Assembly (NCBI RefSeq): GCF_004010195.1
Contig: NC_057721.1
Span: forward strand, 68,812,386-68,876,385
Direction: 5' to 3'
Origin: Chiloscyllium plagiosum
Taxonomy: Eukaryota
Length of the DNA: 64,000 nt
The translations under genes and the position numbers were made by a program. The notes under the pieces are model-generated. The model worked only from the letters and a program-made list of their open reading frames with translations, ran no database searches and was not told where the DNA came from. Shown in pieces: positions 4,097-60,425 of this stretch. How positions within the stretch are numbered: position 1 is the first letter of the stretch; each line of letters starts with the position of its first letter.

Positions 4097-4228
4097 TCTG
4101 GATTAGTGGTGCTGGAAGAGCACAGCAGTTCAGGCAGCATCCAAGGAGCTTCGAAATCGACGTTTCGGGCAAAAGCCCTTCATCAGGATCTGGTTTCCAG
4201 CATCTGCAGTCATTGTTTTTACCTCTCT
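4097..4228. mobile_element. Short non-autonomous Penelope-derived element carrying a hammerhead
   Basis: Flanked by the 16-bp direct repeat TATTTTCTCAACAGAT (4081-4096 and 4229-4244). Contains GCAGCATCC, CCAGCATCTGCAG and the hammerhead motif. Confidence 0.8.
4156..4189 (-). ncRNA. Minimal type I hammerhead ribozyme motif, intact core
   Basis: Minus strand reads ATC-CTGATGA-A-GGGC-TTTT-GCCC-GAAA-CGTC-GAT: both conserved core boxes, 4-bp helix II, palindromic ACGU helix III, GUC site, helix I ATC/GAT. Confidence 0.8.
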
Positions 4229-4515
4229 TATTTTCTCAACAGATCAACCAGTAATGCCTGAGTTCTCAGCTTGGCCACATCTGAGAAAATATTCAGCACT
4301 TTAGCATCTCCAATCTATTCACATAGCTTTCCAGGTTTCAGGCTTTGCAGCAACCTTACATATTTTGTCTAATAGTGCTGTCAAAAAAACCTTCTTTCTG
4401 AGAATTATTTCATTTTCCTCTTTCTATCGCTGTCTGCTTTCTCCTTGTGTTTATATCTGTTCCTTCACCTTCCTCTATCTCACATTGCAGCTCTCCTTTA
4501 TGTCTACAGCTCTTA

Positions 4516-4792
4516 TTAGATTAGATTCCTTACTGTGTGGAAACAGGCCATTTGGCCCAACAATCCACACCGATCCTCCGAAGTGTAACCCACCCCCTCT
4601 GACTAATGCACCTAACACTATGGACAATTTAGCATGGCTGATTCACCTGACCTGCACATCTTTGGAATGGGGGACGAAACCCGAGCACCCAGAGGAAACC
4701 CACACAGACACGGGGAGAATGTGCAAACTCCACACAGACAGTCACCCAAGGCTGGGATCGAACCTGGGACCTTGGTGTTGTGAGGCAGCAGT
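4516..4792 (-). mobile_element. HE1 V-SINE
   Basis: Same V-domain and TAATC tail as 2132-2422. Confidence 0.9.
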
Positions 4793-4859
4793 GTCAGACC
4801 AGATGAACTCCATATCCTCACTGCCTTCTTGTTTCTATTGCTTCCTGGTCAAGCATTGT

Positions 4860-5096
4860 ATAGAACATAGAAGAATACAGCGCAGTACAGGCCCTTGGGC
4901 CCTCGATGTTGCGCCGATCCATGGCCTGTCTACATATTGTGTCAGGAGACTCTCCTGCACACATTGAACAAACGCTGACCCATCTAACGAACTTGAGCTA
5001 TAGCTTTCCCAATCAATATCAGGAAAGTTAAAGTCCCCCATAACAACCACCCTATTACTGTCACTCATCTCCTGAATCACCTTCCCAATCCTTTCT
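4860..5096 (-). mobile_element. Internally deleted CR1: APE endonuclease fragment fused to the 3' tail
   Basis: Translation VVVMGDFNFPDIDWE...FVQCVQESLLTQYVDRP is joined directly to a 3' tail ending in TTCTATGTTCTA. Flanked by TCAAG(C/G)ATTGT repeats. Confidence 0.8.
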
Positions 5097-6689
5097 TCAA
5101 GGATTGTGTCCTCACATGGAACCAGTGCAGGTTATTATACAAGGAAATCATAATTAAGTTCTTTAGAATTGATGCAAGGTTCTAACAATCCCTAAAAACA
5201 AGTCCAGAATCCACAAACAATTTAAAGAAATTAAAAATGTTCTTTACTACTTCCAGGTCAAAGGTTATTTACACTGTGTGTACAGTCCATGTCAGACTTT
5301 TCCTAATCAGAATAACTTCTACTCATTTTTCTTATACATTTATCTAACGTCCTCATAAATGTGCTATGTCTGTTTCCCTCAGCAGTTCCATATTTTAGAC
5401 AGGTTCACCTTGTAATCACTATCTGGATAATCAGGCAAGTTTTTAAAAAAATTTGTAGCTAAGCAGGGCAATCCAACAATGTGGAAGAGTTAATGGGTGA
5501 ACAGTAAAGTAGACTGAATGATCACTGAAGGCTTTGCAGCCAGTAATGGAGCCTAAGAAGGAAGGTACACAACAGGCTAAAGTCAGTAAAGTGAGCACAA
5601 GGCTGTCACAGACTCCATAAACTGGGATAAGTTTAGCTGCAGAAGATTTTGGAAATGAAGGCAATGCACTGAAGGACATGAACTAATGCCAGATTACAGT
5701 TGTGGAGGTGTGAGAATTGCTGTGTAATAGGATACCTGAACCGTTTCTGAAATCTACGCCATGCTTAATGTTATGGCCAGCAATTATAATGTCTGTGTTG
5801 TGAAGCATAAAAATTAAATAATATGTGTTATAACTCATATTAAACATCAATACTTTTAAAATACATCACAATGATTTAGAATCTATCTGTTCACACTTGA
5901 CTAAATTGGGCAATGATTCAATGGATGGTGATATTGCGCATTTTGTTACTGGGTTTGTAGATAATTTACCACAGGAGCTGCTTGCTCCTGTAATTTGATT
6001 TCCCATTAATTGTCATTCCGTTCATCCTCAGGGCTTTGTGAATACCATCTGTGCCATAATCTGCAGAGGTAAGGCTTCCAAATGAATATTAAATCGAGAC
6101 AGTCAGCAAAAACAAATTTTGAGGCCAGAGTTGAGCGCAGATAAATTTGACACAAAACAAAATATATTGAAAAACTGAAGGAAGACTCTCAAACATTTAA
6201 CAATTTAAGATCTCTTATTTAGCAGGTTGAGCTTCACTTTCAGTGCAATGTGACTTTCACCTGAGGCAGTTAACTTATTTTATCTTGTATGAAGTGTGTC
6301 GACTCCCTGCTAATACTGGTAAATTGAACTGTTTTATTCCTCTTAACACTGCATGCTGTAGAGACCAGTGTTCCCTGAAATTGTAAAGATGCCACATATG
6401 TACCAGCAAAACATTTACTTTTGGTTTAATCTGTACGTCAGAGATTAAAGAAAATAACACAGGGACAAAGAGCAAACAATATGACTGTTCTAAGTTTTAT
6501 TGAAACTTATTGCTTTATCTGAATCCAATATAAGACACTCACCTGAATGTTATTAAAAAATGGAGAGAATTGTCATCGACCATTTGCTCTGTTTTATCGT
6601 CCATTTAATATCTTCTCGCTTTGATATATCCTCTGGAACTGTTTTGTGGGTTCAGAGATGGCTGATAAGAAAAAGGAGCAGGAATAAGT

Positions 6690-7579: not shown

Positions 7580-9062
7580 TCCTAAATATTTCGAGAAATC
7601 TATGTATGTCCTCTCGAAATACTTTCAGTGATCTCACCCACCACAACTCTTCAGGGTAGTGAATTCCAAAGGAGAGAAAAGATCCTTTGCCCCTCAGTTT
7701 TAAACAAGTGTCCCCTTTGTTCTTTAATTCTGTTCATTAGTTCCCCTACCATTGGAAACATTATATCAAAAATTTCACGTCAAATCCTCTCAGAATCTGT
7801 ATCTTTCAATACGACTATCCCTCATTCTTTGAAACTGTATGAATAAAGCTTTAGTCTGTTTAGCCATTCTTGATAAATCAATTGCTTCATGTCAGGAATC
7901 ATCCTTTGGTATTGTCGCCAATGCAGTATATATTTCCTAAATAATGGACCAAACTCTATGCAATGCTTTCCTCATGAATCTGTTGTGTGGCACTGTGTCC
8001 AATGCCGTCCAGAAATTCTCACCAACACTGGACACAGTTGTAGCTAGAGGTTTCTGTTTTAAACTCCAAACCTGTAGAGATAAAGGCCAAAGCTCCATTA
8101 TCTTCTTAATTACTTGCTGCATCTGCATGCTAATATTTTGTGTTGTATGCACAAGAACAGCTAGAGCCTCGATACTGCACTTTTCTCCATCTAAATACGA
8201 GTATGCCTTTTGACTTTTTTTCCCACCAAAGTGCATCACTTCACACTTTGCTACATTAAACTCTATCTGCCAAGTTTTTGTCCATTCAATCTATATCCCC
8301 TTGCAGATTCTTTATGTCTGTATCACAACATGTCTTCCCAGCATCAATGGAGAGAAATCAGAGTTAACATTTCAGGTCGAGTGACTCTTCCTCAAACATT
8401 TCTCTTCACAGATGTTGCCAGACCTGCTGAGCTTTTCTGGCAATTTCTGTTTTTGTTTCTGATTTACAGTATCTGTAGTTTTTATGCATTCCCAGCTGTT
8501 TTTGTATCATAAGTAAATTTGGATACATTACACTCTGTACCTTCGTCCACATTGTTGATATAAATAATATCCAATTGAAGTCCTAGGACTGATCCTTGTG
8601 ACAATCCAGTATCATAACCTTTCCAACCTGAAAAAGGACCATTAATAATGATTCTATCTTCTGAGTGTTAATCAATCTTCAGTCCATACTAACACATTAC
8701 CCTCATACTCTGATCCCTAATCTTAAGCAATAACCTTCTATGTGTCACCTTACTGATGCAGATGTACTCCATGTCCTGGCTCCCCTTTATCAAGTCTGAT
8801 TGTTGTAGCCTCGAAGAACTCTCTCAAAATTGTCAAACATGATTTCTCTTTTACAAAACAATGTTGACTCAGCTTGATTGCATTCTGCTTTTCTAAATGC
8901 CTTTCTATTATTTCCTTAATAACAAATTTTAGCATTTTCTCAACAACTGATGCTAGGTTAACTGTCCTATAGTTTCCTGCTTTCTGTTTCTCTTCGTTCT
9001 TGAACAGGGGTGCCATATTAATAGTTTTTCAATCCATTGTAACCCTCCTGGAGTCCAGTGAT
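7580..9062 (-). mobile_element. Decayed CR1 RT fragment, interrupted by a Penelope-derived insert (~8343-8485)
   Basis: ORF 8750-9016 PLFKNEEKQKAGNYRTVNLASVVEKML...SQHCFVKEKSCLT is the CR1 RT N-terminal region. ORF 7937-8239 MHFGGKK... Confidence 0.85.
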
Positions 9063-9262: not shown

Positions 9263-9620
9263 GGTGGCATTGTGGTCATGTCATTGGAACAGTAATCCAG
9301 AGGAAAAGGCTAATGTTCTGGGCAAGTGGGTTCAAATCCCATCCTGACAGATGGTGAAATCTAAATTCAATAAAAATCTGGAATTAAGAAAACAAGCTGG
9401 CCTGTTGACAACCAGATGACTATTGTTGATTGTTGCAAAAATCTATCTGGTTAAACAATACCCTTTAAGGATGAAAATTACCATCCTTACCTAATCTGGC
9501 CTATATGTGACTCCAGGCCCACATCTTATGATTGACTCCGAACTGCCTGCTGGGCAAGTAAGGATGGGCAATAAATGATGGCCTATCCAGAGATACCTTA
9601 GCCTGTGAAGAAATAATGAA
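9263..9620 (+). mobile_element. Family-B SINE, near full length
   Basis: tRNA-like head GGTGGCATTGTGGT...GGGTTCAAATCCCA with B-box, and tail GGATGGGCAATAAATG. Confidence 0.75.
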
Positions 9621-10166
9621 ACAGAGGGCAAACTTGTGCAGTAATATTGTTGCTAGGATACACATTTTTGGTGAAATATTGTATCTGTTTCATTGTCGGG
9701 CCAGAAAGCCCACCACTGTTGGAAAAGTTCAATGTCATCTGCAGTCCTTTACACACAGATTGAAAGCCATTCTTTTCAGTTGTAAGTGATGGTTAACTCC
9801 ACAGGAACATTTGAGAATCTGTAAGGGCTTTGTCATGTACAGTGCCACTTCTTTTGATCTGGACCAGCCTTAAATAATTTTAAACCACCAGGACTTTTAT
9901 CAGCTCACAAACAGCCAATGGAAATGAATCAACGAATGACTTGACAATAGCTGACCGCTTTAAATAGCAGCAATGAGAGTTCCTTGCTGCTGCTAAATAC
10001 ATGTTAGCTGTTTGTACTTACGAGATGGTGTTATATGGAGTGCTGAGGATGAAAATTCTAGCACTGGCATCAACTCTGTGTACCTTTTTGGTACCTACTT
10101 CTAATACACGTGCTATCTGATCTTCATAAAATTAGAAGAGTCCAATGTCATCTGCACTAAGAGATG

Positions 10167-10382
10167 ATTTGGAGATGCCGGTGTTGGACTGGGGTGTACA
10201 AAGTTAAAAATCACACAACACCAGGTTATCGTCCAACAGGTTTAATTGGAAGCTCCAGCTTTCGGAGCGCTACTACTTCATCAGGTGGTTGATCACCTGA
10301 TGAAGGAGCGGCATTTCGAAAGCTAGTGCTTCCAATTAAACCTGTTGGACGATAACCTGGGGTTGTGTGATTTTTAAGTTTG
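10167..10382. mobile_element. Fold-back Penelope-derived element with hammerhead (AGCU subfamily)
   Basis: Inverted arms ~10200-10287 and ~10294-10380. TSD TGCACT(A/G)AGAGATG at 10153-10166 and 10383-10396. Confidence 0.8.
10294..10328 (+). ncRNA. Minimal hammerhead ribozyme motif (AGCU helix III variant)
   Basis: CAC-CTGATGA-A-GGAG-CGGCA-TTTC-GAAA-GCTA-GTG. Helix I is CAC/GTG; helix II has G.U pairs here, and the perfect GGAGCG/CGCTCC version is seen at ~34014-34026. Confidence 0.7.
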
Positions 10383-12024
10383 TGCACTGAGAGATGGCAT
10401 CCAGAACAGACAGCATAGGAAGTCCTTTGAATCATCAAATCAACCTGTCCACTCCAGTGAACTGGATTTTCCATTCTCTGTTTCTAGATGGCACTTGGAT
10501 GGTTACTGACTGGAATAGCCTCTTCCTGAACAACAAATATGACAAGATATTAAAACTCCACTTGAGTTATAAGAACAATGGATAATAAGATGGATTTACA
10601 TCTGCTGAACACCTTAAAGAATTTCTGATGTATGCCTGAGGAATCCCTCTCCCACAATGTATCATTGAGGTTTCACTATTCTGTTAAAATGCAGGTACAG
10701 GGATAGGAAATGATCTGAATTCCCCATTTACAAACTTGTATTCCAACGTCAACTCTTGCTTTAGTCCTCTGACTGTCCCCAAGGAAGATGCAGCTAATAT
10801 TATGCATTGACATTCAGATAGTCGGCCTAAAGCATCCAGTATTCTGTATGTTACTTCTTCTTCAGTGGAAGAAAATAACATACTTAGGCTTCAATTTCAT
10901 GATACTTACAAAGACAATATAAATCAACATAGCGTATAACAAATAGATAATGATGTGTGCATTGGATTTCAATCCAGCACTGACTAATGGGATGAAATTC
11001 TGACTATCTGATGAGTTTGAGTAATGCCAATTCTGGCACTGAGTATAAATATCTTTCCTTTGTAAAAGTTAGATTTACCAATACTGCAGCTATCTCTTAA
11101 TGGATACAAATATTTCACCCTGACCATGAAATTAGATGATTTATGAATTAATGGAATGTTTCTACAGTCATACAGATATATTGAAATGGGAATGTAAAGG
11201 TGATTGAAGATGACACAAAACAAAGTCAAGTTCCTTAATGCAGTTAGATAATGAGGATTCTACAATGCACTTTGTACATTATAGATCACTGTAAATTAAC
11301 TGGATGATAACAGAAAATTGTTTCTTATCAATACAATAGAAAATAATAAAGCTCTAATTATTCTGATCCAGCAGCAACATTGAAGGATGTTAACATTATA
11401 CAGCAGCAGTTTCTCCATAGATCACTTGATAATGGTGCTGCTTATTAGCGAAGTGCCATTCAAACAATAAACCACGATACATTTTCTGATCTTCACATTT
11501 CTGGCAACCTCTCAATATTTGTGTAAGGTTGTTCCTCAGCATAAAGCATAAGGGAAAGATAGAGATCTGCGCTTTGAGATTGGGCTTATCTTTGGTGAGT
11601 TTTGGAATCACCTTGTAAACAAAGTAGATATGCTTTAATAAATTGGACACCTGAATGACAATCTACTTGGCACATCCTACAGACTAACACTTATTCCTCT
11701 GTCTATGTTTTCCTTCTTGGATAATCTTACCCCATTCAAACTTCTGAACTTCCTACAAGTTTGTTGAAGATTTCAGTTGCAATATTAGTGCCAATCCCAC
11801 TTTTCTACACATTGCATTTTTAAGCATCTTCATGTCATCTTTTCTGACCTCCAACATTTCTTCTGTTGGAAGTCAGTTCCAAATAAAGTTGCTGCTCTGG
11901 GTGTCTGGTGTCAGCATTCACTACACATGGCCAGGCAAACAAGGTTAGGCTGAGGTAACCTTACCTTCAATGTTGTGATAAACTGAGAGGATACACACAC
12001 ACCTGTACCATTTAACATGGTTAT

Positions 12025-12625
12025 CAAGCAGGAGGCTGAAAGAATGCAGCAAGCCAGGCAGCATCAAGAGGTCAAGAAGTCAGCATTTTGGATGTAAGCC
12101 TTCTTCAGGTCTGACCTCCCAGTCACTGCCCATTTTAATTCCCTTTCCCATTCCCTTTCCAACATGACCATCCTTGGCCTCCTTCATTGCTACAGCGAAT
12201 CAGACCGCAAATCAGAGGAACAACACCTCATCTTCCACTGGGCAGCCTACAGCGCAGAGGCTCAACATTGAATTCTCCAATTTCAAATAACCTCCCTTCC
12301 CATCCTCTGACTCCCTCTCCAGCCCTTCCCCCTCCCTTCCATTTCTCTCATCGATTCTTCCTTCCAACTACCAACCGGATTCTTTCTTCTCTTTGACCAA
12401 CCAGATTGTACCCTCTACCTGTGTTCACTTATCCTGAGCTCAGCACCCCACACCCCACTCCCTCTCCCTTTATCTACAGCTCCCCTTACACCCATCCCCA
12501 GTCATGAAGAAGGGTTGCACCTGAAACGTTGACTTCTCCACCACCTCATGTTGCCTGGTCTGCTGTGGTCTTCCAGCCTCTTGCTTGTCTATTGTGGATT
12601 CCAGCATCTGCAGTTTTTTTGCTTG
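12025..12625 (+). mobile_element. Penelope-like element 3' end (GIY-YIG C-terminus, C/T-rich UTR, decayed hammerhead) with a short inverted arm
   Basis: HFNSLSHSLSNMTILGLLHCYSESDRKSEEQHLIF translation. Decayed motif GTC-ATGAAGA-A-GGGT-TGC-ACCT-GAAACGTT-GAC at 12501-12533. Confidence 0.8.
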
Positions 12626-12649: not shown

Positions 12650-15600
12650 CTAATCCACGTTCCCGCCTATTCCTTACTTATCAAGAATCTAACCAGCTCT
12701 ACCATAAAATATTCAAAGACTCGACTTCCACTGCTTCTTCAGTGAGAGAGTTCCAAACACTCACAACCATCTGAGAGAAAAATAAAATCACATTATAATA
12801 CCATAAGATATCAGAGCAGAATCAACCCATTTGGCCTATGGAATCTTCTTCACTATTCGATCATGGCTGATATGTTTCTCAGTCCCATTCTCCTGCCTTC
12901 TGTTGGTAACCCCCTAGGTCCTCTTACCAATCAAGAACCTAATCAAAAGAAGTGTGAATGCTGGAAATCAGAAACAGAAACAGAAATTTCCAGAGATCTG
13001 TGGAAAAAAGTTCTGACAAAGGCTCACTGAACCCGAAGCATTAACTCTCCCTTCTCTCCATGGATGCTGCCAGAGCTGTGGAGTTTTTCCAGAAATTTCT
13101 GCTTTTGTAATTAAGGACCTATCTATCTCTGTCTTAAATACATTCAATGACTTGGCCTCCACAACCCTGTGTAGCGATGATTTCCACAGATTCACTAGCC
13201 TCTGGCTGAAGAAATTCCTTCTCAACTCAGTTCTAAAGGATCGTCCCTTCACTCTGAGGCTATACCCTAGGTTCCTAGTCTCTCCTGCTAGTGAAAACAT
13301 CTTCTACACATTCACTCAAACCAGGCCTTTCTATATTCTTGTAGTTTCACTCAGATCCACCACATCCTTCTAATCCCCATCGGGTGCAGTCTCAGAGTCC
13401 TCAACCACTCTTCATATGGCAAGCTCTTCTTCCCCAGAATTGTTCTTGTAAAGCTCCTCTGAACCCCCTCCCAATGCAAACACATTCTTCCTTAGCCACG
13501 GGGCCCAAAACTGCTCACAGTATTCCAAATGCATTCTGACCAGAGCCTTATACAACCTCAGCAGTATATCTCATACTCTAGCCCTCTTGAGATTAATGCT
13601 AACATTACATTTGCATTCCCAACTGCCAACTGAACCTGCATGTTGACCTTAAGAGAATCCTGAACTAGAGCTCCCAATTCTCTTTCTGCTTCAAATTTCT
13701 GAATCCTTTCCCTGTTTAGATAATACTCTATGCTTCTATTCTTTCTATCAAAGTGTATAACCTCACACTTTGCCACACTGTTTTCCAGCTGCCACTTCTT
13801 TGCCACTCTCCTGGCCTGTCCAAGTCCTCCTGCCAGCTCCCGGCTTCTGCTACACTACCTGTTGCTCCATCTATCTTTAGTGTCATCTGCAAACATAGCA
13901 ACAATGCCCTCAGTTCCTTTGTCTATATCGTCAGTGTGTAACATAAATAGCTGTAGTCACGAAACTGACCCCTGCGGAACTCCACCAGTCACCGGCAGCC
14001 AACCAAAAGAAGACCCTTTCATTCTCATTCTCTGTGTTCTGCCAGTCAGCCAATCCTCATTCAATATCAATACCTTGCACTAATACCTCCAATCTTATCT
14101 TATTTAGCAGCCTCCTGAACAGCACCTTCTCAAAGGCCTTTTGAAAATCCAAAAAGATCAAATCTACTGATTTCCTTTGTCTAACTTGCTCATTTCCTCC
14201 TCAAAGAATTTTAACAGATTTGTCAGGCATGACTTCTCCTTGACAAGGCTGTGCTGACTCAGCCTTATTTTACCACACACTTCCAAGTGTCCCACTATCC
14301 CATCCTTCTTAAATTTTTACCAAATAACAAAGTCAGGCGAACAAGTATATTTTCCCTTTCTTCTGCATCCCTCCTTTCTTAAACAGCGGTGTTACATTTG
14401 CTATTTTTCAGTTCTCTGGGACCCATACTCCAGGGATTCCTGAAAGATCACCACCAATGATTCCACAATTTCCTGAGCTATCTCCTTCAGAACTCTGGGG
14501 TGTAGTCCATCTGGTTCTTCTGTGTGATTTATCCACCTTAAACCTTTCAGCTTTTCCAACACCTTCTCCTTAGTGATGGCCACTGAACTCACCTCTGTCC
14601 CCAACTCTCTTGAAGTTCTAATATGCTGTTGATGTCTTCCACTGTGAAAATTGATGCAAAGTACCTATCGAGTTCCTCCATCATTTCTTTGTTTCCCATT
14701 ACTACTTTTCTAGCCTCATTTTCCAAGGGTCCAATGTCCACTTTTATCTCTCTCTTATCTGTTAGATATCTAAAAAAAACTTGCAATCTTCTTTTATATT
14801 ACTATATTCCATTTTCTCCCTGCATATTGCTTTTTTTAGTTATCCTCTACTTGTTTTTAAAGGTTTCCCAATCCTCTGGCTTTCCACTAATCTTCACCAC
14901 ATTGTATGCATTTTTTCTTTGGCTTTTATGCTGTCTTGACTTCCATTGTTAGCGATTGTTACCTCATTCTTCCCTTAGTATATTTCTTCTTCCTTGAGAT
15001 AAATGTCTGCTGTGCTTCCTAGAAATTCTGTAATCTCTATTTTAAATGAGTGATACCTTGTTTTTAAACAGTAACCACTAGTTTCATATTCTCCCATAAG
15101 AGGAAGCATTCTCTCCACATTTTCCCTGTCAAGATCCCTCCCTCAGAATTTTATAAGTCTCACCCAAGTCACCTTTTCCTCCCTGAATTCCAGCAGATAC
15201 AAGCCTAGCCTATTCACTCTTTCCTCATAAGCTAACCCACCTACTTCAGATATTGTTTGGTAAACCTTCACTGACCTACTTCCAACACATTTACATCTCT
15301 TACTAAATAAAATCAATATTGTCCATAGTATTCCAGATGTGATCTCACCTGCCTTATTTTCATATTCAGCTCCCCTCACAATAAACCATATTATTCTACA
15401 GCTTTCGTAATTATTTGCTGTACCACCATATTAAATTTTTGCAGTTACACTAGGATGCCAATATCGTATGATCCTCAGAGCTTTGCAATAGAGTATTTCA
15501 TATTCTCCCACATTATATTCTATTTGCCACTTATTTGCTCACACACTCAACTTCTCTATATCTTTTTGTAACCTCCTTACATCCAATTCACAACTTACTT

Positions 15601-16575: not shown

Positions 16576-16576
16576 A

Positions 16577-17210
16577 TACAGGAGGATATAGACAGACTGG
16601 AGAGTTGGGCGGAAAAGTGGCAGAGGGATTTCAATCCAGACAAATGTGAGGTGATACATTTAGGCAAGACTAATTCTAGAGCAAATTATACAATGAACAG
16701 AAGAGCCTTGGGAAAAGTTGATGGGCAGAGAGATCTGGGAGGGCAGGTCCGCTGTACCCTGAAGGTTGCTGCACAGATGCATAGAGTGGTCAAGAAGGCA
16801 TATAGTATGCTTGCCTTCATTGGATGGAGTATTGAGTATAAGAGCTGGCAAGTCATGTTAACATTGCACAAGACATTGGTTCGGCCGCATGTAGAATATT
16901 GTGTACAGTTCTGGTCACCACATTACCAAAAGGATGTGGACACTTTGGAGAGGGTGTAAGAGGGATACACGCAGCAAGTACTTCACACAGAGGGTGGTGG
17001 GCATTTGGAACGCGTTGCTAGCAGAGGTGGTAGAGGCAGGCACAGTAGATTCATTTAAGATGCATCTGGACAAATGCATGAGTAGGTGGGGAGTAGAGGG
17101 ATACAGATGGTTAGGAATTGACAGGTTTAGACAGTACTTTTGGATCAGCTCAGGCTTGGAAGACTGAAGGGCCTGTTCCTGGGCTGTAAATTTTCTTTGT
17201 TCTTTGTTCT
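16577..17210 (+). mobile_element. Younger CR1 3' fragment with internal deletion, nested in an older minus-strand CR1 (16490-17630)
   Basis: LVRPHVEYCVQFWSPHYQKDVDTLERV followed abruptly by YFTQRVVGIWNAL. (TTCTTTG)n tail. Confidence 0.88.
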
Positions 17211-17827: not shown

Positions 17828-18130
17828 TGGGCGGCACAGTGGTTAGCACTGCTGCCTCACAGCGCCAGGGACCCGGGTTCAATTCCGCCTCAGGCAACTG
17901 TCTGTATGGAGTTTGCACATTCTCCCTGTGTCTGCGTGGGTTTCCTCTGGGTGCTCCAGTTTCCTCCCACAGTCTAAAAATGTGCAGGTTAGGTGAATTG
18001 GCCATACTAAATTGCCCATAGTTTTAGGTGTAGGGGAATGGATCTGGGTGGGTTGCTCTTCGGAGGGTCGGTGTGAATTTGTTGGGCCGAAGGGCGTGTT
18101 TCCACACTGTAAGTAATCTAATCTAATCTA
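17828..18130 (+). mobile_element. HE1 V-SINE, full length
   Basis: GGGCGGCACAGTGGTTAGCACTGCTGCCTCACAGCGCCAGGGACCCGGGTTCAATTCC head with A/B boxes, V-domain, and (TAATC)n tail. Confidence 0.93.
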
Positions 18131-21186: not shown

Positions 21187-21220
21187 GTTACATCACTTGC
21201 CCTTCAACAGGTCAATAGAG

Positions 21221-42796: not shown

Positions 42797-42984
42797 AGGA
42801 GAAAGTGAGGACTGCAGATGCTGGAGATCAGAGCTGAAAATGTGTTGCTGGAAAAGCGCAGCAGGTCAGGCAGCATCCAGGGAACAGGAGAATCGACGTT
42901 TCGGGCATAAGCCCGAAACGTCGATTCTCCTGTTCCCTGGATGCTGCCTGACCTGCTGCGCTTTTCCAGCAACACATTTTCAGC
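42797..42984. mobile_element. Perfect fold-back Penelope-derived element
   Basis: 74-bp perfect inverted arms (42833-42906 and 42911-42984) around the loop ATAA. TSD TTATTAAATA at 42786-42795 and 42985-42994. Confidence 0.9.
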
Positions 42985-42999
42985 TTATTAAATATAGCA

Positions 43000-46151: not shown

Positions 46152-47244
46152 GTGAGGCTTATAAGTAAAATGACCTGCATTCTATTGTGCATGTAAAGTA
46201 TGCTCAATTATTCTGCCTTTAGTCCAGATTAGTTGACAAAACCTTTTCCTCCAGGTCCCAAGTTCAGTTTATGTAATAATGTTTAAACTCGCTGGTGTTT
46301 TATTCTGATTTATTCTGCACTGAATGCAGTTTCCTTTTCAATAAAACTGCGATCATTTAAGTTCTCTTTAAAGGAATGCCAAGGATTCTATATGTCAGTC
46401 ATTTACAACTTAAAGAAAAATTTAAAAAGGATATTGTTTCAGATGTCAACCTCAATAGTCTGAGATAAAATAATCTGATTTAGTCTCTTATCAGATGGTC
46501 ACAGACCTGTTGTGTATTTCCAGCACTTTGCGGTTTGCTTTAATTTTTAAAAGTGTTCATTTTTTTCCGATGAGTTCAATATGCTATATTAATTTTTATT
46601 GTGAATTTCACTTTAGTAAGACACTTCATATTAATAATTGTGTGCACTCATACGTAGCTTTCTTCAGCTACGTTGCATTTTCTCCAAATGGGAGATTTAA
46701 GTGTACACTGACAGAAGTATATAAAATGCAACGAATTAAAAAGAAACTAATTTATAACCGTGTGGGTGCTTGGGTCCAGTGTTAAACAGAACTGAGATAC
46801 AAGAGGCATTTGACAGATGCAGAGAGCCTCAGTGTTATGAAGCGAATAATGACAGCAGGATGGCAGAAGGAGAAAGGAAACACAGAGCGAATGAAAGTCA
46901 GAATGTACAAAAGAGTGCAATAAAGACAAAGCAAAGCCAACTGTAGCACAGATGAAAGAGAGAAACAGGGAGAGTGCTGAAGACTGCAAGTGCAAAGAAA
47001 ATCTCTGATAGAGGTGATACAATGAAGCAAAATGAAAGCAGTGAACATAGATAAATACAAATTAACAGTTCAAAAGAAGAGTGAAAACAAACATGGATAC
47101 AGTAAACAACATAAATTCAAAGCAGCATGAGGGCAAAAGTACGGGCAGAAAAACACAGGCTTTAAAATCGTAAAAATAATCAAAAATAGCAGTACGTGAC
47201 TGAAAAAAACGAGAGTTACATGTGTGTACAATGCATAGCAATTT

Positions 47245-49302: not shown

Positions 49303-49914
49303 ATAAGGGTGCTGCAGTGACCTTTAATGTTACAGCAAACCAGTGCACACACAAAGCAGTGAGAGATACAGCAACCATTCAGAGCCAGTCCAACAGATGG
49401 TCATAGAAATTAAAGATTTATAACCTGTAAATATTTCAGTTGTTGTGGACACCGCAGGACATCAGAAAAATCATTGCTTAATTATTGTAGTGAGGGAAAT
49501 AACAGAAAGGGAAGGAAGCTAGAAGGCAAAAACAATGGATTCAGGGAATGATAAGAGGAAGCCAAAAATCAAATGATGGTTTCAGAGGGATGACATTAAT
49601 AACAAAAAGTGGATTTATGGGCCCTGAGGCTGACCTCAAACTTGGCGCTTTAAAGGATAAATTAGTCAAGCATTTTAATCTTGGGAGTTTTTTCAGCGAC
49701 CGAGATAATCAGAGGGCCTATTGCCCTCCCCACGCATCCAACTGACAGGCTGCAAGATGTGCTGGATTGAGTCATCCTCACTGATCTCAGGTACAAATCC
49801 ATCTGCATTGCCCTCTCCTGCTTCTAATGTGATCAGCTTGACTAGAAAGTACACATGCATGAAAGGCATCAGCTGTGATGCCTCCTACAGTTGAAGTGGC
49901 TTCCGATACTTAAT

Positions 49915-50200
49915 CATTGAATTCCTACAGTGTGGAAGCATGGTCCATCAAGTCCACACTGACCCTCTGAAGAGCAGCTCAGCCCCTACCCTATCTCTGC
50001 AATTCTACATTTCTTGTGGCCAATCCACCTAGCCTGCACATCTTTGGAACTGTGGGAAGAAACTTGAGTCCCCAGAGGAAACCCACGCAGAATTGGGCAG
50101 AATGTCTGTTTGAAGTTTGCACAGTCACCTGAGGGTGGAATCAAACCCAAGTCTCTGGTGCTGGTGAGGCAATATTGCTAACCAATGAGCTACCATGTCA
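49915..50200 (-). mobile_element. HE1 V-SINE, diverged
   Basis: CCTGCACATCTTTGG...GAGGAAACCCACGCAG is the V-domain reverse complement. Confidence 0.8.
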
Positions 50201-51076: not shown

Positions 51077-51622
51077 TTTATTCATTCATTTGTTCATCGG
51101 CGGTCCCTTGCAGATGAGGTAGACACTCTTCCATTCTCAGGGTGAGTCTGCAGCTGGCTGTACAGATTGATGCGACTCCCACAGGCTCTATTACACTTGG
51201 GATGTGATCACGGAAATGGGTGGGGGCATTGGTGTGTGGCAGCGCGGCCCTTTCACTGTGCTCGCCTGGCTTCCATTTTTTTCCTGACGGCAAGTCTCGA
51301 GGACCTCAATGCCTTCCTGGATGCTCCTCCTCCATTTTGGACGATGTTGGGTCAGTGGTTCCCAGGTGTCTGTGGGAATGCAGTGTTTTACCAGTGAGGC
51401 CCTGAGGGTATCCCTGAAGCACTTCCTCTGTTCACCTGGGCCATGCCTGCTGTTTCAAAGCTGGGAGTACAGCACCTGCCTGGGGAGTCTCTTAGTCATG
51501 TGGATGACATGCCCAGCCCATCACAGCCGATTAATAATGGTCAGTGCCTCAATGCTGGGGATAATGGCCTGGTCGAGGACCCAGGTGCTGCTGCGTCTTT
51601 CTTCCCAGCTGATTCACAACTG
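51077..51622 (-). mobile_element. RTE-clade LINE 3' fragment
   Basis: PSIEALT...WAGHVIHM.KRLPRQVLYSQL...GEQRKCFRDTLRASL...TDTWE...RPKWR, and a C-terminal IGLYS-like zinc-finger region. Confidence 0.85.
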
Positions 51623-52400
51623 TTTTTATAACCCCCAATAATTTTATAACAACGTGCCCCAGCCCAGCGTTTTTATAACCCCCAATAATTTTATAACAAC
51701 GTCCCCAGTTCAGCATTTTTATAACTCTTAATAATTTTATAACAACGTCCCCAGCCCAGCATTTTTATAACCCCTAATAATTTTATAACAACGACCCCCA
51801 GCTCAGCATTTTTATAACCCTTAATAATTTTATAACAATGACCCCCAGCTCAGCATTTTTATAACCTTTAATAATTTTATAACAACGTCCCCCAGCCCAG
51901 CATTTTTATAACCCCTAATAATTTTATAACAACACTCCCCCAGCTCAGCGTTTTTATAACCTCTAATAATTTTATAACAACACCCCCCAGCCTAGCGTTT
52001 TTATAACAACCAATCATTTTATAACAATGTCCCCCAGTCCAGTGTTTTTATAACCCCCAATAATTTTATAACAACGTCCCCCAGCCCAGCATTTTTATAA
52101 CCCCTAATAATTGTATAACAACATCCCCCAGCCCAGCCTTTTTATAACCCCAAATAATTTTAGAATAACGTCCCCAAGCCCAGCCTTTTTATAACCCCTA
52201 ATAATTTTATAGCAACGTCTCCCAGCCCAGTGTTTTTATAATCCCCAATAATTTTATAACAGCGTCCCCAAGTCCAGCCTTTTTATAATCCCCAATAATT
52301 TTATAACAACGTGCCCCAGCCCAGTGTTTTTATAACCGCCAATAATTTTATTACAGTCCTCCCAAGCCCAGTAATATTTATAATTCCACCATCCCCAGTC
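51623..52400. repeat. 47-bp minisatellite, 16 units plus one degenerate unit
   Basis: Unit ~TTTTTATAACCCC(C/T)AATAATTTTATAACAACGTCCCCCAGCCCAGC(G/A). Starts at 51623, 51670, 51716, 51762, 51809 ... 52280, 52327. Confidence 0.97.
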
Positions 52401-53269: not shown

Positions 53270-53610
53270 AAATTGTAGAATCCTTACAGCGTGGAAGCAG
53301 CCCATTTGGCCCATCAAGTCTACATCAATCCTCTGAAAGGCATCCCATTAGACCCAACCCCCTAATGTGTAACACTGCATTTCCAAAAGCTAACCCACCT
53401 AGCCTGCACACCTCTGGGTACTATGGGCAATTTAGCATGGCCAATGCGCCTAACCTGCACATTGGGGGGGAAGCCAGGGCACCTGGAGGAAATCCACTTA
53501 GCCACATGGAGAATGTGAAAAGTCTACACAGACAGCTGCCTGAGGGTGGAATCAAACCTGAGTCCTTGGCTCTGTGAATCAGCAGGGGTAACCATTGATC
53601 CACTGTGCTA
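53270..53610 (-). mobile_element. HE1 V-SINE
   Basis: GGGCAATTTAGCATGGCCAAT..CCTAACCTGCAC block plus head reverse complement. Confidence 0.85.
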
Positions 53611-54239
53611 TTTCGTAATGATGGATGTCACCCCTAAATGAAGGACGCAATCTTACAGGAGTCTGAGTGATGTGTGTTTTGACAGGTGTTCCCTGACACA
53701 GTGTGGTGAGGACCAACTCCATCTTTACCATTTCCCAAGTAGCGCGGTGAGATCCTTGAGAGGCAGCAGCGAGATGCCTAGCAACAGCGATTAATGCTTG
53801 TTGTATTTAATGCCACAACCTGCCACATTTATATTCAGCCTCTCTTACAAAACTCATCAATCACTAGTCGTCAGGGAAACTCAAAAAGGAAACCAGGGTG
53901 TGTACTTGGCGGATTCAGCTCAAAGTTTGCTCTAAATGCTCTCCATGAACCTATTCCCAAACTGCATCCCAGGTATGGTCAACACACAACCCTCCTCCTC
54001 CATGGACACTGGCATCCCGCATTTGCTCATCATCATTGACACTTGTCCTATTTGCTGGCAATGCATTTTGGAAGCATAAACCAACATTACAGGGCTCACC
54101 AACAATTAGTTTTCAAAGGCCGCAGCAAGGGGATATTGGAAGAAGGACAAGCAGCCAGGGCGTAGATTGGACCAAGGCTGCATCTCCAGGAATCACACTT
54201 TCTCTCTCACTTAGCACCTGCCTGCATGCTTGCAACATG

Positions 54240-54700
54240 TGGCATGGTGGCTCAGTGGCTAGCACTGTTTCCTCACAATGCCAGGGACCTGGGTTCATTT
54301 CCAGCCATTGATGACTGTCTACATGGAGTTTTCACATTCTTCCCATGTCTGTATGGGGTTCCTTCCATAATATGCAGGTTAGTTGAATTGACCATGCTAG
54401 ATTACCCATTGTAGGAGAAAGTGAGGACTGCAGATGCTGGAGATCAGAGCTGAAAATGTGTTGCTGGAAAAGCACAGCAGGTCAGGCAGCATCCAAAGAG
54501 CAGAAGAATCGACGTTTTGGGCATGAGCCCTTCTTCAGGAATCCATTGTGTCCAGGGATGTGTAGGTCAAGTGGATTAGCCATGGGAAATGCAGGGTTAT
54601 AAGGATAGGGTAGGGAGTGGTGTGTCTGGGTGGGACATTCTTTGGAGAGTTGGTGTGGACCTGTTGGGCCAAATGGCTTGTTTCCACACAGGGATTCTGT
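54240..54700 (+). mobile_element. HE1 V-SINE interrupted by a hammerhead element
   Basis: Head at 54240, tail at ~54700, split at a duplicated CCATTGT. Confidence 0.85.
54413..54542 (-). mobile_element. 130-bp hammerhead-bearing Penelope-derived element
   Basis: TSD CCATTGT at 54406-54412 and 54543-54549. Minus strand begins ATTC-CTGAAGA-A-GGGC-TCAT-GCCC-AAAA-CGTC-GATT (G12 changed to A). Confidence 0.85.
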
Positions 54701-55702
54701 GGAACATTCCTGCCTTGCTTTACTGTGCTAATGAGCTCAGGCAACTTACCTTGATGCTAAGAAGTCTTCCATCAAGGAGGGGCACACATCTTGACAAGTG
54801 GCAGTGTGCTATATCAATATCACGCCTCCATATGAACACCTCGGGGCTTCTCTTGTCCCCCTCAGCATCTGGGACAGCTGGGCATTATTCCATAGAGTTC
54901 ATGGAGAGGCTAATGGAACATGCAAGGCAGAAGAGAGAAAGGGAGAGTGAAGGTGTCACAGTCAATGGTTTGATGTGGTGTTGAATGATTGGGAGTGTTG
55001 TGGAAAGAATGAGTGAAGTTTGCTTGGTGGGATATGGATGGTTAAGCACCACCACAGAAGTGGTGTCTCTCCTCATTGGGGATGAGGACACAGATTTCAG
55101 GTCTTTTCTGCACTGTTGTCTTCTTTGTAACAAAAAGAACAAAGAAGGACAATAAGTGAGGTTAGGATGGGTGGCCGAGCTGTTAGTGCTGTGGCACGTG
55201 GGGTGAAAAATGATGAGATGTACCAAAGGGATGAGGAGGCATCATTCAGGATTAGTGGCTAGGGGGGAGAGTGAGTGCAGGAAGATATTGCAGGCTATAG
55301 TAAGAGTGGCTGAACCTGAGCCTTGGTGGGAGGTGGGTACAGTAGCAGAGATAGTGTGTGCTGACAAGCAGAAGGATGTTACACTAAACCCGGAGAAGGA
55401 TCTTTCTTTTCCCTCTCATTTGGTGGCTTCACTTCAATGATGACTCAGCACTGGTGCAGCTGCAATCTGGAGACATGATGTTGCCATTGTAGCTATGCAA
55501 ATGAACATGTCAGGGCAATTTGTGGAGCTTCCTATTTATATAGACTCACACCATCCCGTAACCTGGTGTTGGCTCTTTCATTAGTGGCCAAGATTTTAAC
55601 GGCCAAGGTCTTAAATTCTGGGAGTTCCACTGCAGGCCTCTTCCACCCCTCTATCGCTCTCCCCTGTTTTATACGCTCCTTAAAATTTACCTAGAATTGT
55701 TC

Positions 55703-56035
55703 ATGGAATCCCTACAGTGTGGAAACAGGCCACTTGGCCCAACAACTTCACACTGACTCTCAGGAGAGTAACCCACCCAGACTCATTCCCCTACCCTATT
55801 ACTCTACATTTACCACTGACAATGCACCTAACCTACACATCCCTGAACACTACGGGCAATTTAGCGTGGTCAATTCACTGAAACTGTACATCTTTGGATT
55901 GTTGAAGTAAACTGGAGCACCCGGAGGAAACCCTTGCAGGGCAGGGCGAATTCGCAAACTCCACACAGAGAGTTGCCTGAGGCAGGATTCAAACCTGGGT
56001 CTCTGGCACTATGTGCTAACCACTGTGCCACCACC
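55703..56035 (-). mobile_element. HE1 V-SINE
   Basis: ATCCCTACAGTGTGGAAACAGGCC tail reverse complement and GTGCTAACCACTGTGCCACC head reverse complement. Confidence 0.85.
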
Positions 56036-57499: not shown

Positions 57500-57720
57500 G
57501 TACATTCCTGATGAAGGGCTTATGCCCGAATCATCAACTCTCCTGTTCCTCGGATACTGCCTGACTGGCTGTGCTTTTCCAGTGCCGTACATTCCTGATG
57601 AAGGGCTTATGCCCGAATCATCAACTCTCCTGTTCTCGGATACTGCCTGACTGGCTGTGCTTTTCCAGTGCCACATTTTTCGACTCTGACTCTCCAGCAT
57701 CTGCTGTCCTCACTTTCTCT
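57500..57720 (+). mobile_element. Hammerhead element with an 87-bp tandem duplication
   Basis: 57500-57586 is repeated at 57587-57672. Both copies read ATTC-CTGATGA-A-GGGC-TTAT-GCCC-GAAT-CATC. Confidence 0.88.
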
Positions 57721-57889
57721 TCCTTAGAGTTCAGTTCAAGGTCAAGTAAAACCCTAAGTTTGAAAATGTTCTGTTCAGCCTGAGACATCAGCCATTCCAT
57801 AGTGATAGACAGATGGCAAATGTTAACATTTACATAGAAACGTAAACATAGAAGATAGAAGCAGCAGTAGGGCATCCGACTCCTCAAAC

Positions 57890-58800
57890 ATCATAAGACC
57901 AGATAACATAGGAGCAGAATTAGGTCATTTGGCCCATTGAGTCGACTCCACCACTTGATCATGGCTGATTGTTTTTCAACACCATTCTCCTGTCTTCTCC
58001 TCGTAACTCTGATTCCTTTAGGAATCAATTTATCTCTGTCTTAAACATACTCAATGTCTTGGTCTCCACAGCCCACCACGGCAATGAGTTTTATCGATTC
58101 ACCACCCCAGGCGGAAGAAATTTCTTCTCATCTCCATTCTAAGTGGTTCTCTCTTCACTCTGAGGCCATGCCCTGGGGTGCGAGTCTCTTTAACCAGAGG
58201 AAACATCTTCTCCACATCTAATCTATCCAGGCCACTTAGTATTCTATAAGTTTCAAACAGATCATCCCTCATCCTTCTAAAATTCATTGAGTACACATCA
58301 TCGGGCTCAATTCCCTAATTTCACATATCATACAGTCAGAGAGTCAGAAAGATGTACAGCATGGAAACAGATCTTTCAGTCCAACTTGACCTTGCCAACT
58401 AGATATCCTAAATTAATCTAGTCCCATTTGCCTGTATTTGGCCCATATCCCTCTAAACCTTTACCATTCATGTCCCATCCAGAAGCCCTTTAAATGTTGC
58501 AATTATACCAGCCTCCACCACCTCTTCTGGCAGCTCATTCTATACACTTGTGAGGAATCCCTTGGTCCCTTTAATCACAAGTGCGATATCTATCTCTTTC
58601 TTGAAAACACATGGTTTGGCTTCAATCATTTTCTGTGTCAGTGAGTTCCACAGGCTCACCAGTCGCTAAGAACTTTCTCCTCAACTCAGTCCTAAAAAGT
58701 TTACCCCTTGTCCTAAAATAAATTTACCCCTTGTCCTTAAACTATGATCCCTGGATCTGGACTCTCCCACCATTGGGAACTTCCTTCCTGCATTGAACGT
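57890..58800 (-). mobile_element. Stacked CR1 3' ends, followed by a hammerhead element at ~58811-58902
   Basis: ORF 58099-58296 FRRMRDDLFETYRIL...TPGHGLRVK..MRRNFF. HER1-type tail at 58330-58545. Confidence 0.85.
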
Positions 58801-58912
58801 ATTTAGTCTATTATGAAGGGCTCTTGCCCGAAACGTCGAATTTCCTGCTTCTCGGATGTTGCCTGACCTTTTGTGCATTTCCAGCACCACATTAATCTAG
58901 AACTATTATAGG

Positions 58913-59795
58913 TTGAATTGAATTGAATTGAATTGAATGGAATTTATTGCCACGTGTACCGAGGCACAGTGAAAAGCTTTGTCTTGTGGGCAATACAGGC
59001 AGATCACAAAGTTAAATAGCATAGATAAGTAAATAATAAGTACACAGTGGCAAAACAAAAACACAGGTACTGGTGAATGCTAAGAGTTTGAGTCCATTCA
59101 GTATTCAACAACAGTCGGGTAGAAACTGTTTCAAAACTGGCTGGTGCATGTTTAGGCCTCTACCTTCTCCCCGATGGTAGAGGTTGTAGAAGAACATTGC
59201 CGGGATGGGATGGATCTTTGAGAATGCTGGCGGCTTTTCCTTGATGGCAGGCCTGGTATATGGATTCTATAGATGGGAGGTTGGCCTTTGTGATTGTCCA
59301 GGCTGCGTTCACCACTCTCTGTAACCGTCTCCGATCTTGAATGGTGCAGTTGCCATACCAGGTAGTGATACATCCAGACATAATGCTCTCGATGGCGCAC
59401 CTATAAAAGTTGGCAAAGGTATTCGCCATCATCCTAAATTTCCTCAGCTGCCTGAGGAAGAAGAGATGTTGGGCCTTTGTACCCAGTGCATCCACATGAA
59501 GAGTCCAAGAAAGCTTGTTATGGATGACCTCTCCTAGGAGCTTGACACTCTCCACTCATTCCACCTCTGCACTGTTAATGTGTAGGGGGACATGAGTAAC
59601 ATCCCACCAAAAGTCAATAATGAGTTCCTTGGTTTTGCCAGCATTGAGAGCTAGGTTTTCTCAGTGCACCATTTTTCCAGGTTTTCCACCTCCCAACTGT
59701 AGTCTGTTTCATCGCCATCTGAGATTTAACCAATTATGGTGGGGTCATCAGCAAACTTGTAATTGGCATTAGTTTGGTATTTGGTGACGCAGTTT
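58913..59795 (-). mobile_element. Rex1/Babar LINE RT C-terminus and 3' end
   Basis: 131-aa ORF LSWTLHVD...FFLRQLRKF...FYRCAIESIMSGCITTWYGNC...DPSHPGNVLLQPLPSGRR. KFADDPTII upstream; (ATTCA)n tail. Confidence 0.92.
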
Positions 59796-59869
59796 TGAGA
59801 TGTTTCTACAAACTAGCCCTTATTTTTTGAAACTCTTCTGAAACTGAATCACTTCACAGAACATCCACA

Positions 59870-60425
59870 TTCTGCAAGAATGACCCTGAGCCTCCAGTTG
59901 CCTGCCACAACAACACCCCACCCTGTTCCCTGGCCAACATCTCTGTCTCAGGCTTGCTGCAGTGCTCCAGTGAAGCTCAGTATAATCTGTAAGAACAATA
60001 CCTCATTCTCCGCTTAGGGACCTCCGGACTCAATATCGAGTTCAATAATTTTAGGGCCTGAGCTCTCCCATGTCCTAGTCCCAACTGCACACAGACCGGA
60101 CCTTATCACATCATCTGCCATTACGCACTACCTATTATTAGCCACTAATGGCTAACAGCTATTTATACCCCCAGCCAGATTTTTATTGACTCCTTTGTCT
60201 GTCCAAGTGTTCTTCTCTCTCTTTGGGCTCCATCTCCACCTATTGTTACTGTTTACCCCATCCCTCCACACTATCTTCTGCATATAAACTGACACTTTCT
60301 GAGCTACCATAATTTCTGAGGGTCACTGGACCCAAAATGTTAACTATGATTTCTCTTCACAGATGCTGTCAGACCTACTGAACTTTTTGAGAAACTTTGT
60401 TTCTGATTGACAGCATCTGCAGTTT
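59870..60425 (+). mobile_element. Penelope 3' fragment (GIY-YIG C-terminus, UTR, decayed hammerhead)
   Basis: PVACH...ANISVSGLLQCSSEAQ..L.EQYLILRLGT..GLNIEFNNFR. CTGAGGGTCACTGGACCCAAAATGTTAAC at ~60316-60345. Confidence 0.8.

Follow-up and report, generated by a model that had tools for sequence, protein, structure and literature searches.

We analyzed 64,000 nucleotides of the genome of the shark Chiloscyllium plagiosum (contig NC_057721.1, positions 68,812,386 to 68,876,385; this whole stretch is called the window below). The abundant hammerhead-bearing repeats found there are the pseudo-long terminal repeat (pseudo-LTR) ends of several Neptune-type Penelope-like retrotransposon families, and are not short interspersed elements (SINEs) or retrozymes. 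Most copies are probably run-off complementary DNAs (cDNAs), similar to 'strong-stop' products, made from the 5' end of element RNA that was capped and had not been cleaved, and would be promoterless once inserted. This reading comes from an abrupt cliff of 5' ends just before the ribozyme, a promoter-like layout upstream of it, and an excess of G at the insertion junction.

Six subfamilies were resolved and are named from helices II and III of the ribozyme: TTTT, TTAT and CTGT (all with helix II GGGC/GCCC), TAC (GGGT/ACCC), GGGTC, and AGCU. Positions marked + or - are counted from the first C of the CUGANGA core, which is 0. With references cut from long copies, a census was taken of the window and of 40 stretches of 10 kb each, chosen evenly (387,101 bases other than N, drawn from the 19 largest contigs only), and the end statistics refer to the 135 elements of both samples pooled. 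The 5' ends of 24 elements lie beyond -13, with none at -30 to -14; 50 lie at -13 to 0 and 61 behind 0. Thus 50 of the 74 copies that reach the core stop within the same few nucleotides, and the stopping rate per base is 0.081 at -13 to 0 vs. 0.0027 at -14 to -100, a 30-fold difference (23-fold without the window). Only two copies start at the cleavage site, give or take about 2 nt. Among the 78 copies starting between -14 and +14, 38 adjoin an inverted arm and only two have endonuclease sequence upstream (one with a gap, the other with an internal deletion), indicating that 3' untranslated regions (UTRs) absent from the references do not explain the cliff. A splice acceptor was ruled out as its cause, as there is no AG at this place in three subfamilies, and a short RNA polymerase III transcript is unlikely, given that the TTTT subfamily has runs of four T at +12 and ~+30.

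In RNA polymerase II core promoters, a pyrimidine-A start typically follows a TATA box at a distance of about 30 nt. Of the 18 long reference copies, which represent six subfamilies, 16 have TATAAA or TTTATC/TTATC at -33 to -41: TATAAA at -33 in GGGTC and at -38 to -41 in AGCU, and TTTATC/TTATC at -34 to -37 in the others. An initiator-like pyrimidine-A occurs at -4, or at -8 in AGCU, and lies ~30 nt past the box in every subfamily, a spacing that fits the polymerase II layout of TATA box and initiator. Some copies contain TATA-like words at more distant upstream positions as well, and it is this shared spacing that carries the argument. Short copies do not have the TATA-like box.

If reverse transcriptase (RT) runs to the very end of a capped template, a G should often adjoin the initiator A as the first foreign base; an extra G at the 5' junctions of full-length L1 has been ascribed to the cap (PMC11702581). 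We counted junction bases by hand in the first 100 matches listed for each genome search, all from the first one or two contigs, and the following shares hold among the matches listed. At the TTAT junction (10,018 matches) there were 63 G, 18 A and 19 T, and after 12 inverted-arm matches were dropped, G made up 51 of 88 (58%; p 1e-10), where 25% was expected, as at the AGCU and GGGTC junctions. The AGCU junction (1,556 matches) gave 58 G, 29 T and 13 A, or 31 G of 52 (60%; p 2e-7) without 21 long-copy and 27 inverted-arm matches, and the GGGTC junction (1,467 matches) gave 45 G, 34 T and 21 A, or 35 G of 82 (43%; p 5e-4) without 18 matches from two recurring contexts. At a control junction, placed one base further into TTAT (11,740 matches), we counted 15 G, 31 T and 54 C; removal of 46 inverted-arm matches left 15 G of 54, against an expected 29% (p 0.62). 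When G and T were compared directly, the TTAT junction (51 G, 19 T) differed from the control (12 G, 31 T) with a Fisher p of 5e-6. The base at -6 in TTAT junctions is G in 14 of 88. The three letters before the junction G vary, so the excess does not come from a G-bearing subfamily. A junction G of this kind is known to mark caps that were reverse-transcribed.

The identity of the repeats is evident from their long copies. In all six subfamilies GIY-YIG sequence lies upstream of the hammerhead, and in four of them RT was also seen. A genome search with the endonuclease piece at 34.6 kb of the window returned 33,473 first-look candidates, of which 150 were scored, and the loci fetched (numbered L) have the order RT, linker, endonuclease, ~200-nt 3' UTR and TAC hammerhead. 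The RT homologues, from Chiloscyllium punctatum, Rhincodon typus, Hypanus sabinus, corals and a snail, carry PF00078 and PF26215, the longer ones also PF01541, and long frames in the C. plagiosum genome are up to 94% identical to a C. punctatum protein. RT-endonuclease frames precede the hammerheads of TTTT (L131-133, L139), TTAT (L135) and CTGT (L136-138), while endonuclease C-termini precede those of GGGTC (L166, L183) and AGCU (L039, L043); the AGCU C-terminus is only 33-36% identical to protein P0006. In L136, an 893-aa stop-free frame passes through RT and GIY-YIG to just upstream of the hammerhead and matches residues 207-929 of P0058 (PF00078 and PF01541), giving the single open reading frame (ORF) with RT and C-terminal GIY-YIG of an endonuclease-containing (EN+) Penelope element. 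One ray protein, P0004, is annotated as a divergent protein kinase domain isoform and has a 64% match to Penelope RT, probably because a retroelement exon lies within the gene model.

The layout is likewise that of EN+ Penelope elements, with a partial tandem in L139, inverted pairs, and 3' ends in two peaks ~35 nt apart. Sixty-two of the 135 elements stand in head-to-head inverted pairs, which places two hammerheads on opposite strands, and a same-strand neighbor of the same family within 400 nt was found for only six. Of 96 3' ends, 38 fall at +80 to +95 and 49 at +115 to +128; the two peaks correspond to the optional tail that Frangieh et al. (2024; PMC11167929) traced to two internal RT start sites. 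L139 holds a complete tandem unit, with a hammerhead at 221, RT and endonuclease at 1666-3653 and a second hammerhead at 3712; its N-terminus matches residues 6-218 of P0041 (E 1e-15), and an AGCU inverted pair is inserted near the ORF start. The same arrangement of hammerhead, tail and ORF start recurs in L064. Read from L139, a complete unit comprises the C/T-rich 3' UTR of the upstream copy, a TATA or TATA-like box, the initiator A, the minimal hammerhead 4-8 nt on, two alternative 3' end points (~+90 and ~+125), a short 5' UTR, the ORF (N-terminal domain, RT, C-x4-CxxC linker, GIY-YIG), a 3' UTR and the pseudo-LTR again. The C-x4-C-x2-C linker is present in L136, L068, L018 and L039 and decayed in the window copy. 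A CX2-5CxxC linker marks Neptune and Nematis (Craig et al., 2021; PMC8557442), and it is by this motif, rather than by a tree against named references, that the shark elements would be placed in the Neptune clade. No copy with both a fully intact 5' pseudo-LTR and an unbroken ORF was present among 10 loci fetched of the 73 matches of a stricter first look at the gapped assembly. In the AGCU family a (CA)n run in the 3' UTR breaks the assembly (L043; L056-L057).

The ribozyme is the minimal type I hammerhead (min-HHR) described in Penelope-like pseudo-LTRs by Cervera and De la Pena (2014; PMC4209133). In the majority letters of all six subfamilies we found the CUGANGA and GAAA..UH core, an extra base before helix II, a G-C closing pair and a palindromic helix III, which alternates between ACGU and AGCU. 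Helix I, from the inner to the outer pair, is C-G/A-U/C-G in AGCU, C-G/U-A/G-C/A-U in TAC, C-G/U-A/U-A/A-U in CTGT and U-A/U-A/G-C/A-U in GGGTC. In TTTT and TTAT it is C-G/U-A/U.U/A-U, with a mismatch at pair 3, and this weakest helix I is found in the most abundant young subfamilies. Covariation can be seen in these majority letters: two-sided changes between subfamilies affect pairs 1-3 of helix I and pairs 3 and 4 of helix II, in what are six related lineages. Judged from sequence, these compensatory stems point to selection on the fold in source elements and, taken with the conserved core and palindromic helix III, would mean that a dimer-competent fold was selected for. When the first 125-175 nt of six copies were folded, z scores ranged from -2.5 to +1.2, with no consistent extra stability. 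A GATGCTG/CAGCATC stem recurs across the ACGU subfamilies. The motif GATGCTGCC is conserved at ~+45 in all ACGU subfamilies (L139:221-400), pairs with CAGCATC of the tail and is at the same time the beginning of a short ORF ahead of the main ATG; the stem may serve RT binding or translation control. A further variant combines helix I UAC/GUA with helix II GGGA, which points to additional subfamilies.

Taken together, these data suggest the following course of events. RNA polymerase II would start at the initiator A, and the RNA would be capped; transcription starts within the pseudo-LTR have been reported for related elements (Schostak et al., 2008, PMC2377424; Craig et al., 2021, PMC8557442). 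The element protein would then nick the chromosome and initiate cDNA synthesis at an internal point of the RNA, either +90 or +125. For the anole element, internal initiation at two sites was shown in vitro with uncleaved RNA as the main substrate, together with nicking and extension of both target strands and protein-assisted cleavage (PMC11167929). An RT starting in the cap-proximal copy would run off the 5' end after 95-135 nt and copy the cap as an extra base, and the short cDNA would be inserted, as the 5' cliff and junction G suggest. Head-to-head pairs could arise from priming on both nicked target strands or from fold-back. Since the template would be uncleaved RNA, the hammerhead would be a passenger in the short insertions, which presumably become dead ends upon loss of the TATA box, and it would be kept by selection in active source elements. 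Cleavage at +28 in the latter would remove the cap with ~32-37 nt and may thus act as a switch for translation or RNA fate; we propose a decapping or RNA-processing role for the hammerhead only tentatively.

Several observations weigh against run-off from a capped start. The 61 copies that start inside or behind the core show that ordinary truncation occurs too. Four subfamilies have only the TATA-like TTTATC and not TATAAA, and the mapped promoter of D. virilis Penelope is internal and TATA-less (PMC2377424). Genome-wide junction counts cover four of the six subfamilies (TTAT, AGCU, GGGTC and TTTT). At the TTTT junction (10,166 matches) the G excess is weak, with 15 G vs. 10 A (p 0.04) among the matches listed once 72 templated C and three inverted-arm matches of the first 100 were dropped. 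In the two copies inspected (at 54.5 kb of the window and L025), the junction G lies inside the target duplication and could be matched rather than added, although a cDNA whose terminal C pairs with the target would also account for this position. The donor may be full-length mRNA in cis, a solo pseudo-LTR transcript, or a transcript of one of the numerous longer, truncated copies in which the box is retained (24 of 135 extend beyond -13), mobilized in trans. Finally, RNA run X21 (organism B, single-cell poly(A), ~2% read) gave 4,158 reads on L139 1-1400 with no pile of molecule starts or ends, in a library that hardly tests 5' ends.

Another view is that the short copies are ordinary 5'-truncated Penelope copies whose ends pile up by RT stalling at the folded hammerhead, or by ATT/AGTT microhomology with AT-rich targets, with no RNA 5' end at that place. 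The anole endonuclease prefers 5'-ATT-3' (PMC11167929), the target duplication and element start of L025 share GATT, and the starts inside or behind the core are of the kind that truncation leaves. However, stalling would be expected at the 3' edge of the structure and not 4-8 nt beyond its 5' edge, the AGCU cliff shifts with its TATAAA spacing to ~-8, where there is no ATT, and the G excess is specific to the start junction among the matches listed. We therefore regard this explanation as unlikely. The initial annotation had instead seen separate SINE-sized, retrozyme-like units, which as non-autonomous elements would be self-transcribed, cleave as dimers and be remobilized by Penelope proteins. 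Such a view would accommodate the small size (83% of the 135 copies are at most 150 bp) and recurring ends, as well as the one direct tandem of the window (57503-57719); non-LTR retrozymes derive from pseudo-LTRs of Penelope-like elements and have been found in one chondrichthyan (Li et al., 2026; 10.64898/2026.07.22.740005), and a few tandem retrozyme arrays may exist elsewhere in this genome. Nevertheless, each subfamily has long coding copies, in which the hammerhead ends a GIY-YIG element. The starts precede the hammerhead, with only the two mentioned at the cleavage site, and same-strand neighbors (6 of 135) are far outnumbered by inverted ones (62 of 135). Retrozymes consist of at least two direct tandem units with complete hammerheads, whereas both cores of the window tandem are broken. 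Nor are the short copies SINE-like: they begin with a hammerhead arm rather than a tRNA-like head, no tRNA-, 5S- or 7SL-type Rfam match was found at the element places, and they have no TATA-like box. This interpretation is accordingly highly unlikely.

Cervera and De la Pena (2014; PMC4209133) proposed a model in which cleavage and ligation yield a circular RNA template, and on this model the short copies would be partial products. The conserved core, compensatory stems and palindromic helix III of all six subfamilies are in line with it, but a circle has neither an end at -4 or -8 nor a cap and cannot give the cliff or the G, making it an extremely improbable source of the short copies. A circular template may still account for long or tandem copies. 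In retroviruses and LTR elements, minus-strand strong-stop DNA is a short cDNA spanning the interval between an internal priming site and the capped 5' end of the element RNA. The shark copies would differ from it in being primed by nicked chromosomal DNA instead of a tRNA and in being inserted directly, strand transfer being hypothetical. It is a doubtful and more speculative notion that the pseudo-LTRs act as true U3-R-U5, such that target-primed reverse transcription would as a rule begin close to the capped 5' end and the strong-stop cDNA must jump to the 3' pseudo-LTR before the body can be copied. If so, the short copies, in their hundreds of thousands, would each record a failed jump, and every cycle would restore the optional tail from the 5' copy. 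The cliff, the cap G, the AGCU poly(A) signal upstream of both RT start points and copies running 6-8 nt into the 5' UTR fit such a jump; conversely, four subfamilies have no poly(A) signal, and read-through RNA can explain the long copies without it.

The signal in question, A(T/A)TAAA, occurs at ~+35 to +44 in 39 of 56 AGCU copies and at ~+75 in 10 of 11 CTGT copies; no constant position for it was seen in the remaining four subfamilies. In AGCU copies, such as that at 10292-10387 of the window, a GU/U-rich stretch lies downstream. In X21, 338 and 360 reads turn into poly(A) at +56 and +59, respectively, of the AGCU copy at L139:647-691; they probably come from one or two host loci, and an AGCU copy appears to supply the 3' end of at least one host transcript. 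A depth step at the hammerhead in runs X21, X1 and X3 was discarded because it merely mirrors genomic copy number.

The window holds 29 elements, or one per 2.2 kb (Table 1). All 19 places named in the initial annotation contain a copy or remnant, as recovered by core search, BLAST with six seeds and the census. Its helix II and helix III sequences, its assignment to minimal type I hammerheads of Penelope-like elements and its count of at least four subfamilies likewise agree with our results. Paired stems, which it also described, were borne out as compensatory changes between subfamilies but not copy by copy: just five window copies match the strict core, only three of the 29 keep the core and both stems, and the rest are decayed. 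A strict descriptor (core, helix II of at least 3 bp, helix I of at least 2 bp) matched the window three times, compared to a mean of 0.01 in 100 dinucleotide shuffles, showing that the window hammerheads are not due to chance. The helix I ATC/GAT reported at 4.1 kb proved to be a junction artefact, since this copy starts 2 nt before the core and the adjoining inverted tail supplies part of the helix; in long copies of its subfamily the true helix I is ATTC/GATT with a U.U mismatch. Nor are all elements short, as had been thought, since four of them (34561-35297, 12113-12620, 35294-35708 and 59852-60424) extend upstream into GIY-YIG coding sequence. The inverted repeat at 42797-42985 is as expected from a cDNA that folds back on helix II and primes itself, and is a candidate fold-back product. 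An Rfam scan of the window gave no hammerhead model match at E<=10; inverted hammerhead pairs yield chance matches to microRNA families (e.g., 28309-28394, 21396-21574). Pfam gave nothing significant for two window fragments and five decayed locus frames, whose identity was taken from homologues.

Table 1. Hammerhead elements and other repeats of the 64-kb window.
Position	Strand	Feature	Details
4092-4188	-	Short GGGC-TTTT copy	Core 4186-4159 and both stems intact; ends at +90 site; inverted tail just upstream
8339-8486	both	Head-to-head inverted pair, decayed GGGTC copies	
10164-10291; 10292-10387	-; +	Head-to-head inverted AGCU pair	5' ends -8 and -5; core 10297-10325 (+) and both stems intact
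12028-12113; 12113-12620	-; +	Inverted GGGT/ACCC pair, short and long arm	Short arm 5' end -5; long arm with endonuclease C-terminus and TATA-like box 12469-12474
13009-13108	+	Decayed GGGTC short copy	5' end -4
21217-21538; 21535-21794	-; +	Inverted pair, longer GGGC-TTAT copies	TATA-like box 21633-21638; core 21668-21695 intact, helix I broken
23297-23367	-	Decayed AGCU short copy	
25512-25556	+	GGGC-TTTT 3' fragment without hammerhead	
27107-27207	-	Decayed GGGTC short copy	5' end -2
28309-28452	both	Inverted pair of short copies	Both truncated inside hammerhead
31447-31518	-	Old decayed copy	
34008-34093	+	AGCU short copy	Start +2
34561-35297	-	5'-truncated GGGT/ACCC copy	C-x4-CxxC linker and broken GIY-YIG ~35297-34828; C/T-rich 3' UTR; TATA-like box 34668-34663; intact minimal hammerhead 34633-34607; from tblastn with P0006/P0058 and L068 endonuclease, and census
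35294-35708	+	Inverted partner arm of the 34561-35297 insertion	Endonuclease C-terminus, 3' UTR, decayed hammerhead at 35593, tail
39075-39094; 39397-39501	+	GGGTC copy split by SINE insertion	Stub and 3' part
42797-42985	both	Near-perfect ~190-bp inverted repeat centered on helix II	Both arms start +8
46474-46529	+	Weak GGGTC 3' fragment	Similar fragment 1227-1255 (-)
54413-54542	-	Exemplar short copy, mutated core	Starts at initiator A 4 nt before core, preceded by G; 3' end at +125 site; flanking 7-bp target duplication includes that G
57503-57582; 57590-57719	+	Direct tandem, two short copies	Both start -5; common core mutation; sole retrozyme-like arrangement in window
58813-58902	+	Short copy	Start +3
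59852-60424	+	Long GGGTC copy, decayed hammerhead and tail	Endonuclease C-terminus 59894-60049; TATAAA 60283-60288
39105-39388; 2129-2419; 4513-4793; 17830-18127; 49914-50196; 53276-53629; 55698-56032; 61725-62068		SINE-like repeat, ~280 bp	About nine window copies; one splits the 39.1-kb hammerhead element
1373-1881; 16619-17058; 20270-21184; 39625-41023; 63424-64000		Decayed long interspersed element (LINE) 3' fragments	Presumably CR1-like, from resemblance of translated frames
3672-3955; 9263-9597; 22807-23044; 29481-29802; 44812-44992; 60441-60737		Dispersed 200-330 bp repeat family, six copies	
51622-52371		Tandem array, 47-bp unit x16	Unrelated to hammerhead elements

The very high copy number suspected in the initial annotation was found genome-wide. 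Exact cores number 144,326 (controls, 13), of which 112,756 are of the ACGT type (control, 12) and 31,570 of the AGCT type (control, 1). A single 28-letter pattern has 70,555 exact matches (control, 0), while the old GGGTC subfamily retains merely 282 exact copies of its 33-letter pattern. The 40 sampled stretches contain 106 elements, one per 3.65 kb. By extrapolation, the genome would hold about 970,000 copies (Poisson range 800,000-1,180,000). Elements make up ~4% of the sampled DNA (16,322 of 387,101 bp), and the median element length is 102 bp.

The ribozyme class and its place in Penelope-like pseudo-LTRs are already known (Cervera and De la Pena, 2014; PMC4209133). The metazoan elements described there share with those of the shark the type I core, the extra nucleotide before helix II, G10.1-C11.1, the palindromic 15.2-16.2, several families per genome, and mostly solo truncated copies with some opposite-strand pairs. 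They differ in number, with ~4,000 motifs in coelacanth and ~9,000 in Xenopus vs. 144,326 exact cores here, although the descriptors differ and the counts are not strictly comparable; helix II has 7-8 bp in the Schistosoma families and 4-5 bp in the shark. The supplement of that paper lists no shark, and its Results and Discussion make no link to a start site or cap. Neptune EN+ elements (Craig et al., 2021; PMC8557442) resemble ours in RT, CX2-5CxxC linker and GIY-YIG, in strong 5' truncation with inverted 5'-truncated copies, in an optional 30-40 bp tail, and in a hammerhead and start site within the pseudo-LTR; the main text mentions neither sharks nor 'TATA' nor 'strand transfer'. In Poseidon PAc of Anolis carolinensis (Frangieh et al., 2024; PMC11167929), two internal RT starts also bound the tail, the hammerhead lies ~100 nt before them, and uncleaved RNA is the substrate. 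Unlike PAc, whose ORF begins inside the hammerhead, the shark elements have their likely ATG ~165 nt past the core start (L139, L064); the PAc study, as available to us, contains no mapped start site or short run-off insertions.

In D. virilis Penelope (Schostak et al., 2008; PMC2377424), the transcript likewise starts in the upstream pseudo-LTR and expression needs the tandem arrangement, but besides having that internal promoter the element carries a 75-bp intron 46 bp past the start, with the hammerhead behind the intron, whereas in the shark the TATA-like box lies upstream and only 4-8 nt separate the hammerhead from the inferred cap. Non-LTR retrozymes (Cervera and De la Pena, 2020, PMC7229834; Li et al., 2026, 10.64898/2026.07.22.740005) are also short non-coding type I units related to Penelope-like pseudo-LTRs, but are defined as direct tandem repeats, in contrast to the solo or inverted shark copies. 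A Penelope expansion in a shark has already been published (10.1101/443036); the words 'ribozyme' and 'hammerhead' do not occur in the available text of the whale-shark preprint noting it. In our searches of the open literature, as distinct from subscription papers, Repbase and Dfam, we found no description of the start-site cliff, of a TATA box and initiator beside the hammerhead, or of the cap G.

How Penelope-like elements transpose and what the hammerhead does are open questions (PMC8557442; PMC11167929). The promoter layout and insertion signature of this known element and ribozyme appear undescribed and bear on that mechanism. Run-off from the capped start would explain the ~4% share of sampled DNA and the excess of ribozymes over the coding body, and it predicts an exact start site, a promoter and a cap-removing cleavage. 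The shark genome preserves reverse-transcription end points as a very large fossil record. This record points to uncleaved, capped RNA with its start right at the hammerhead as the template of most insertions, in agreement with the dispensability of cleavage seen in vitro.

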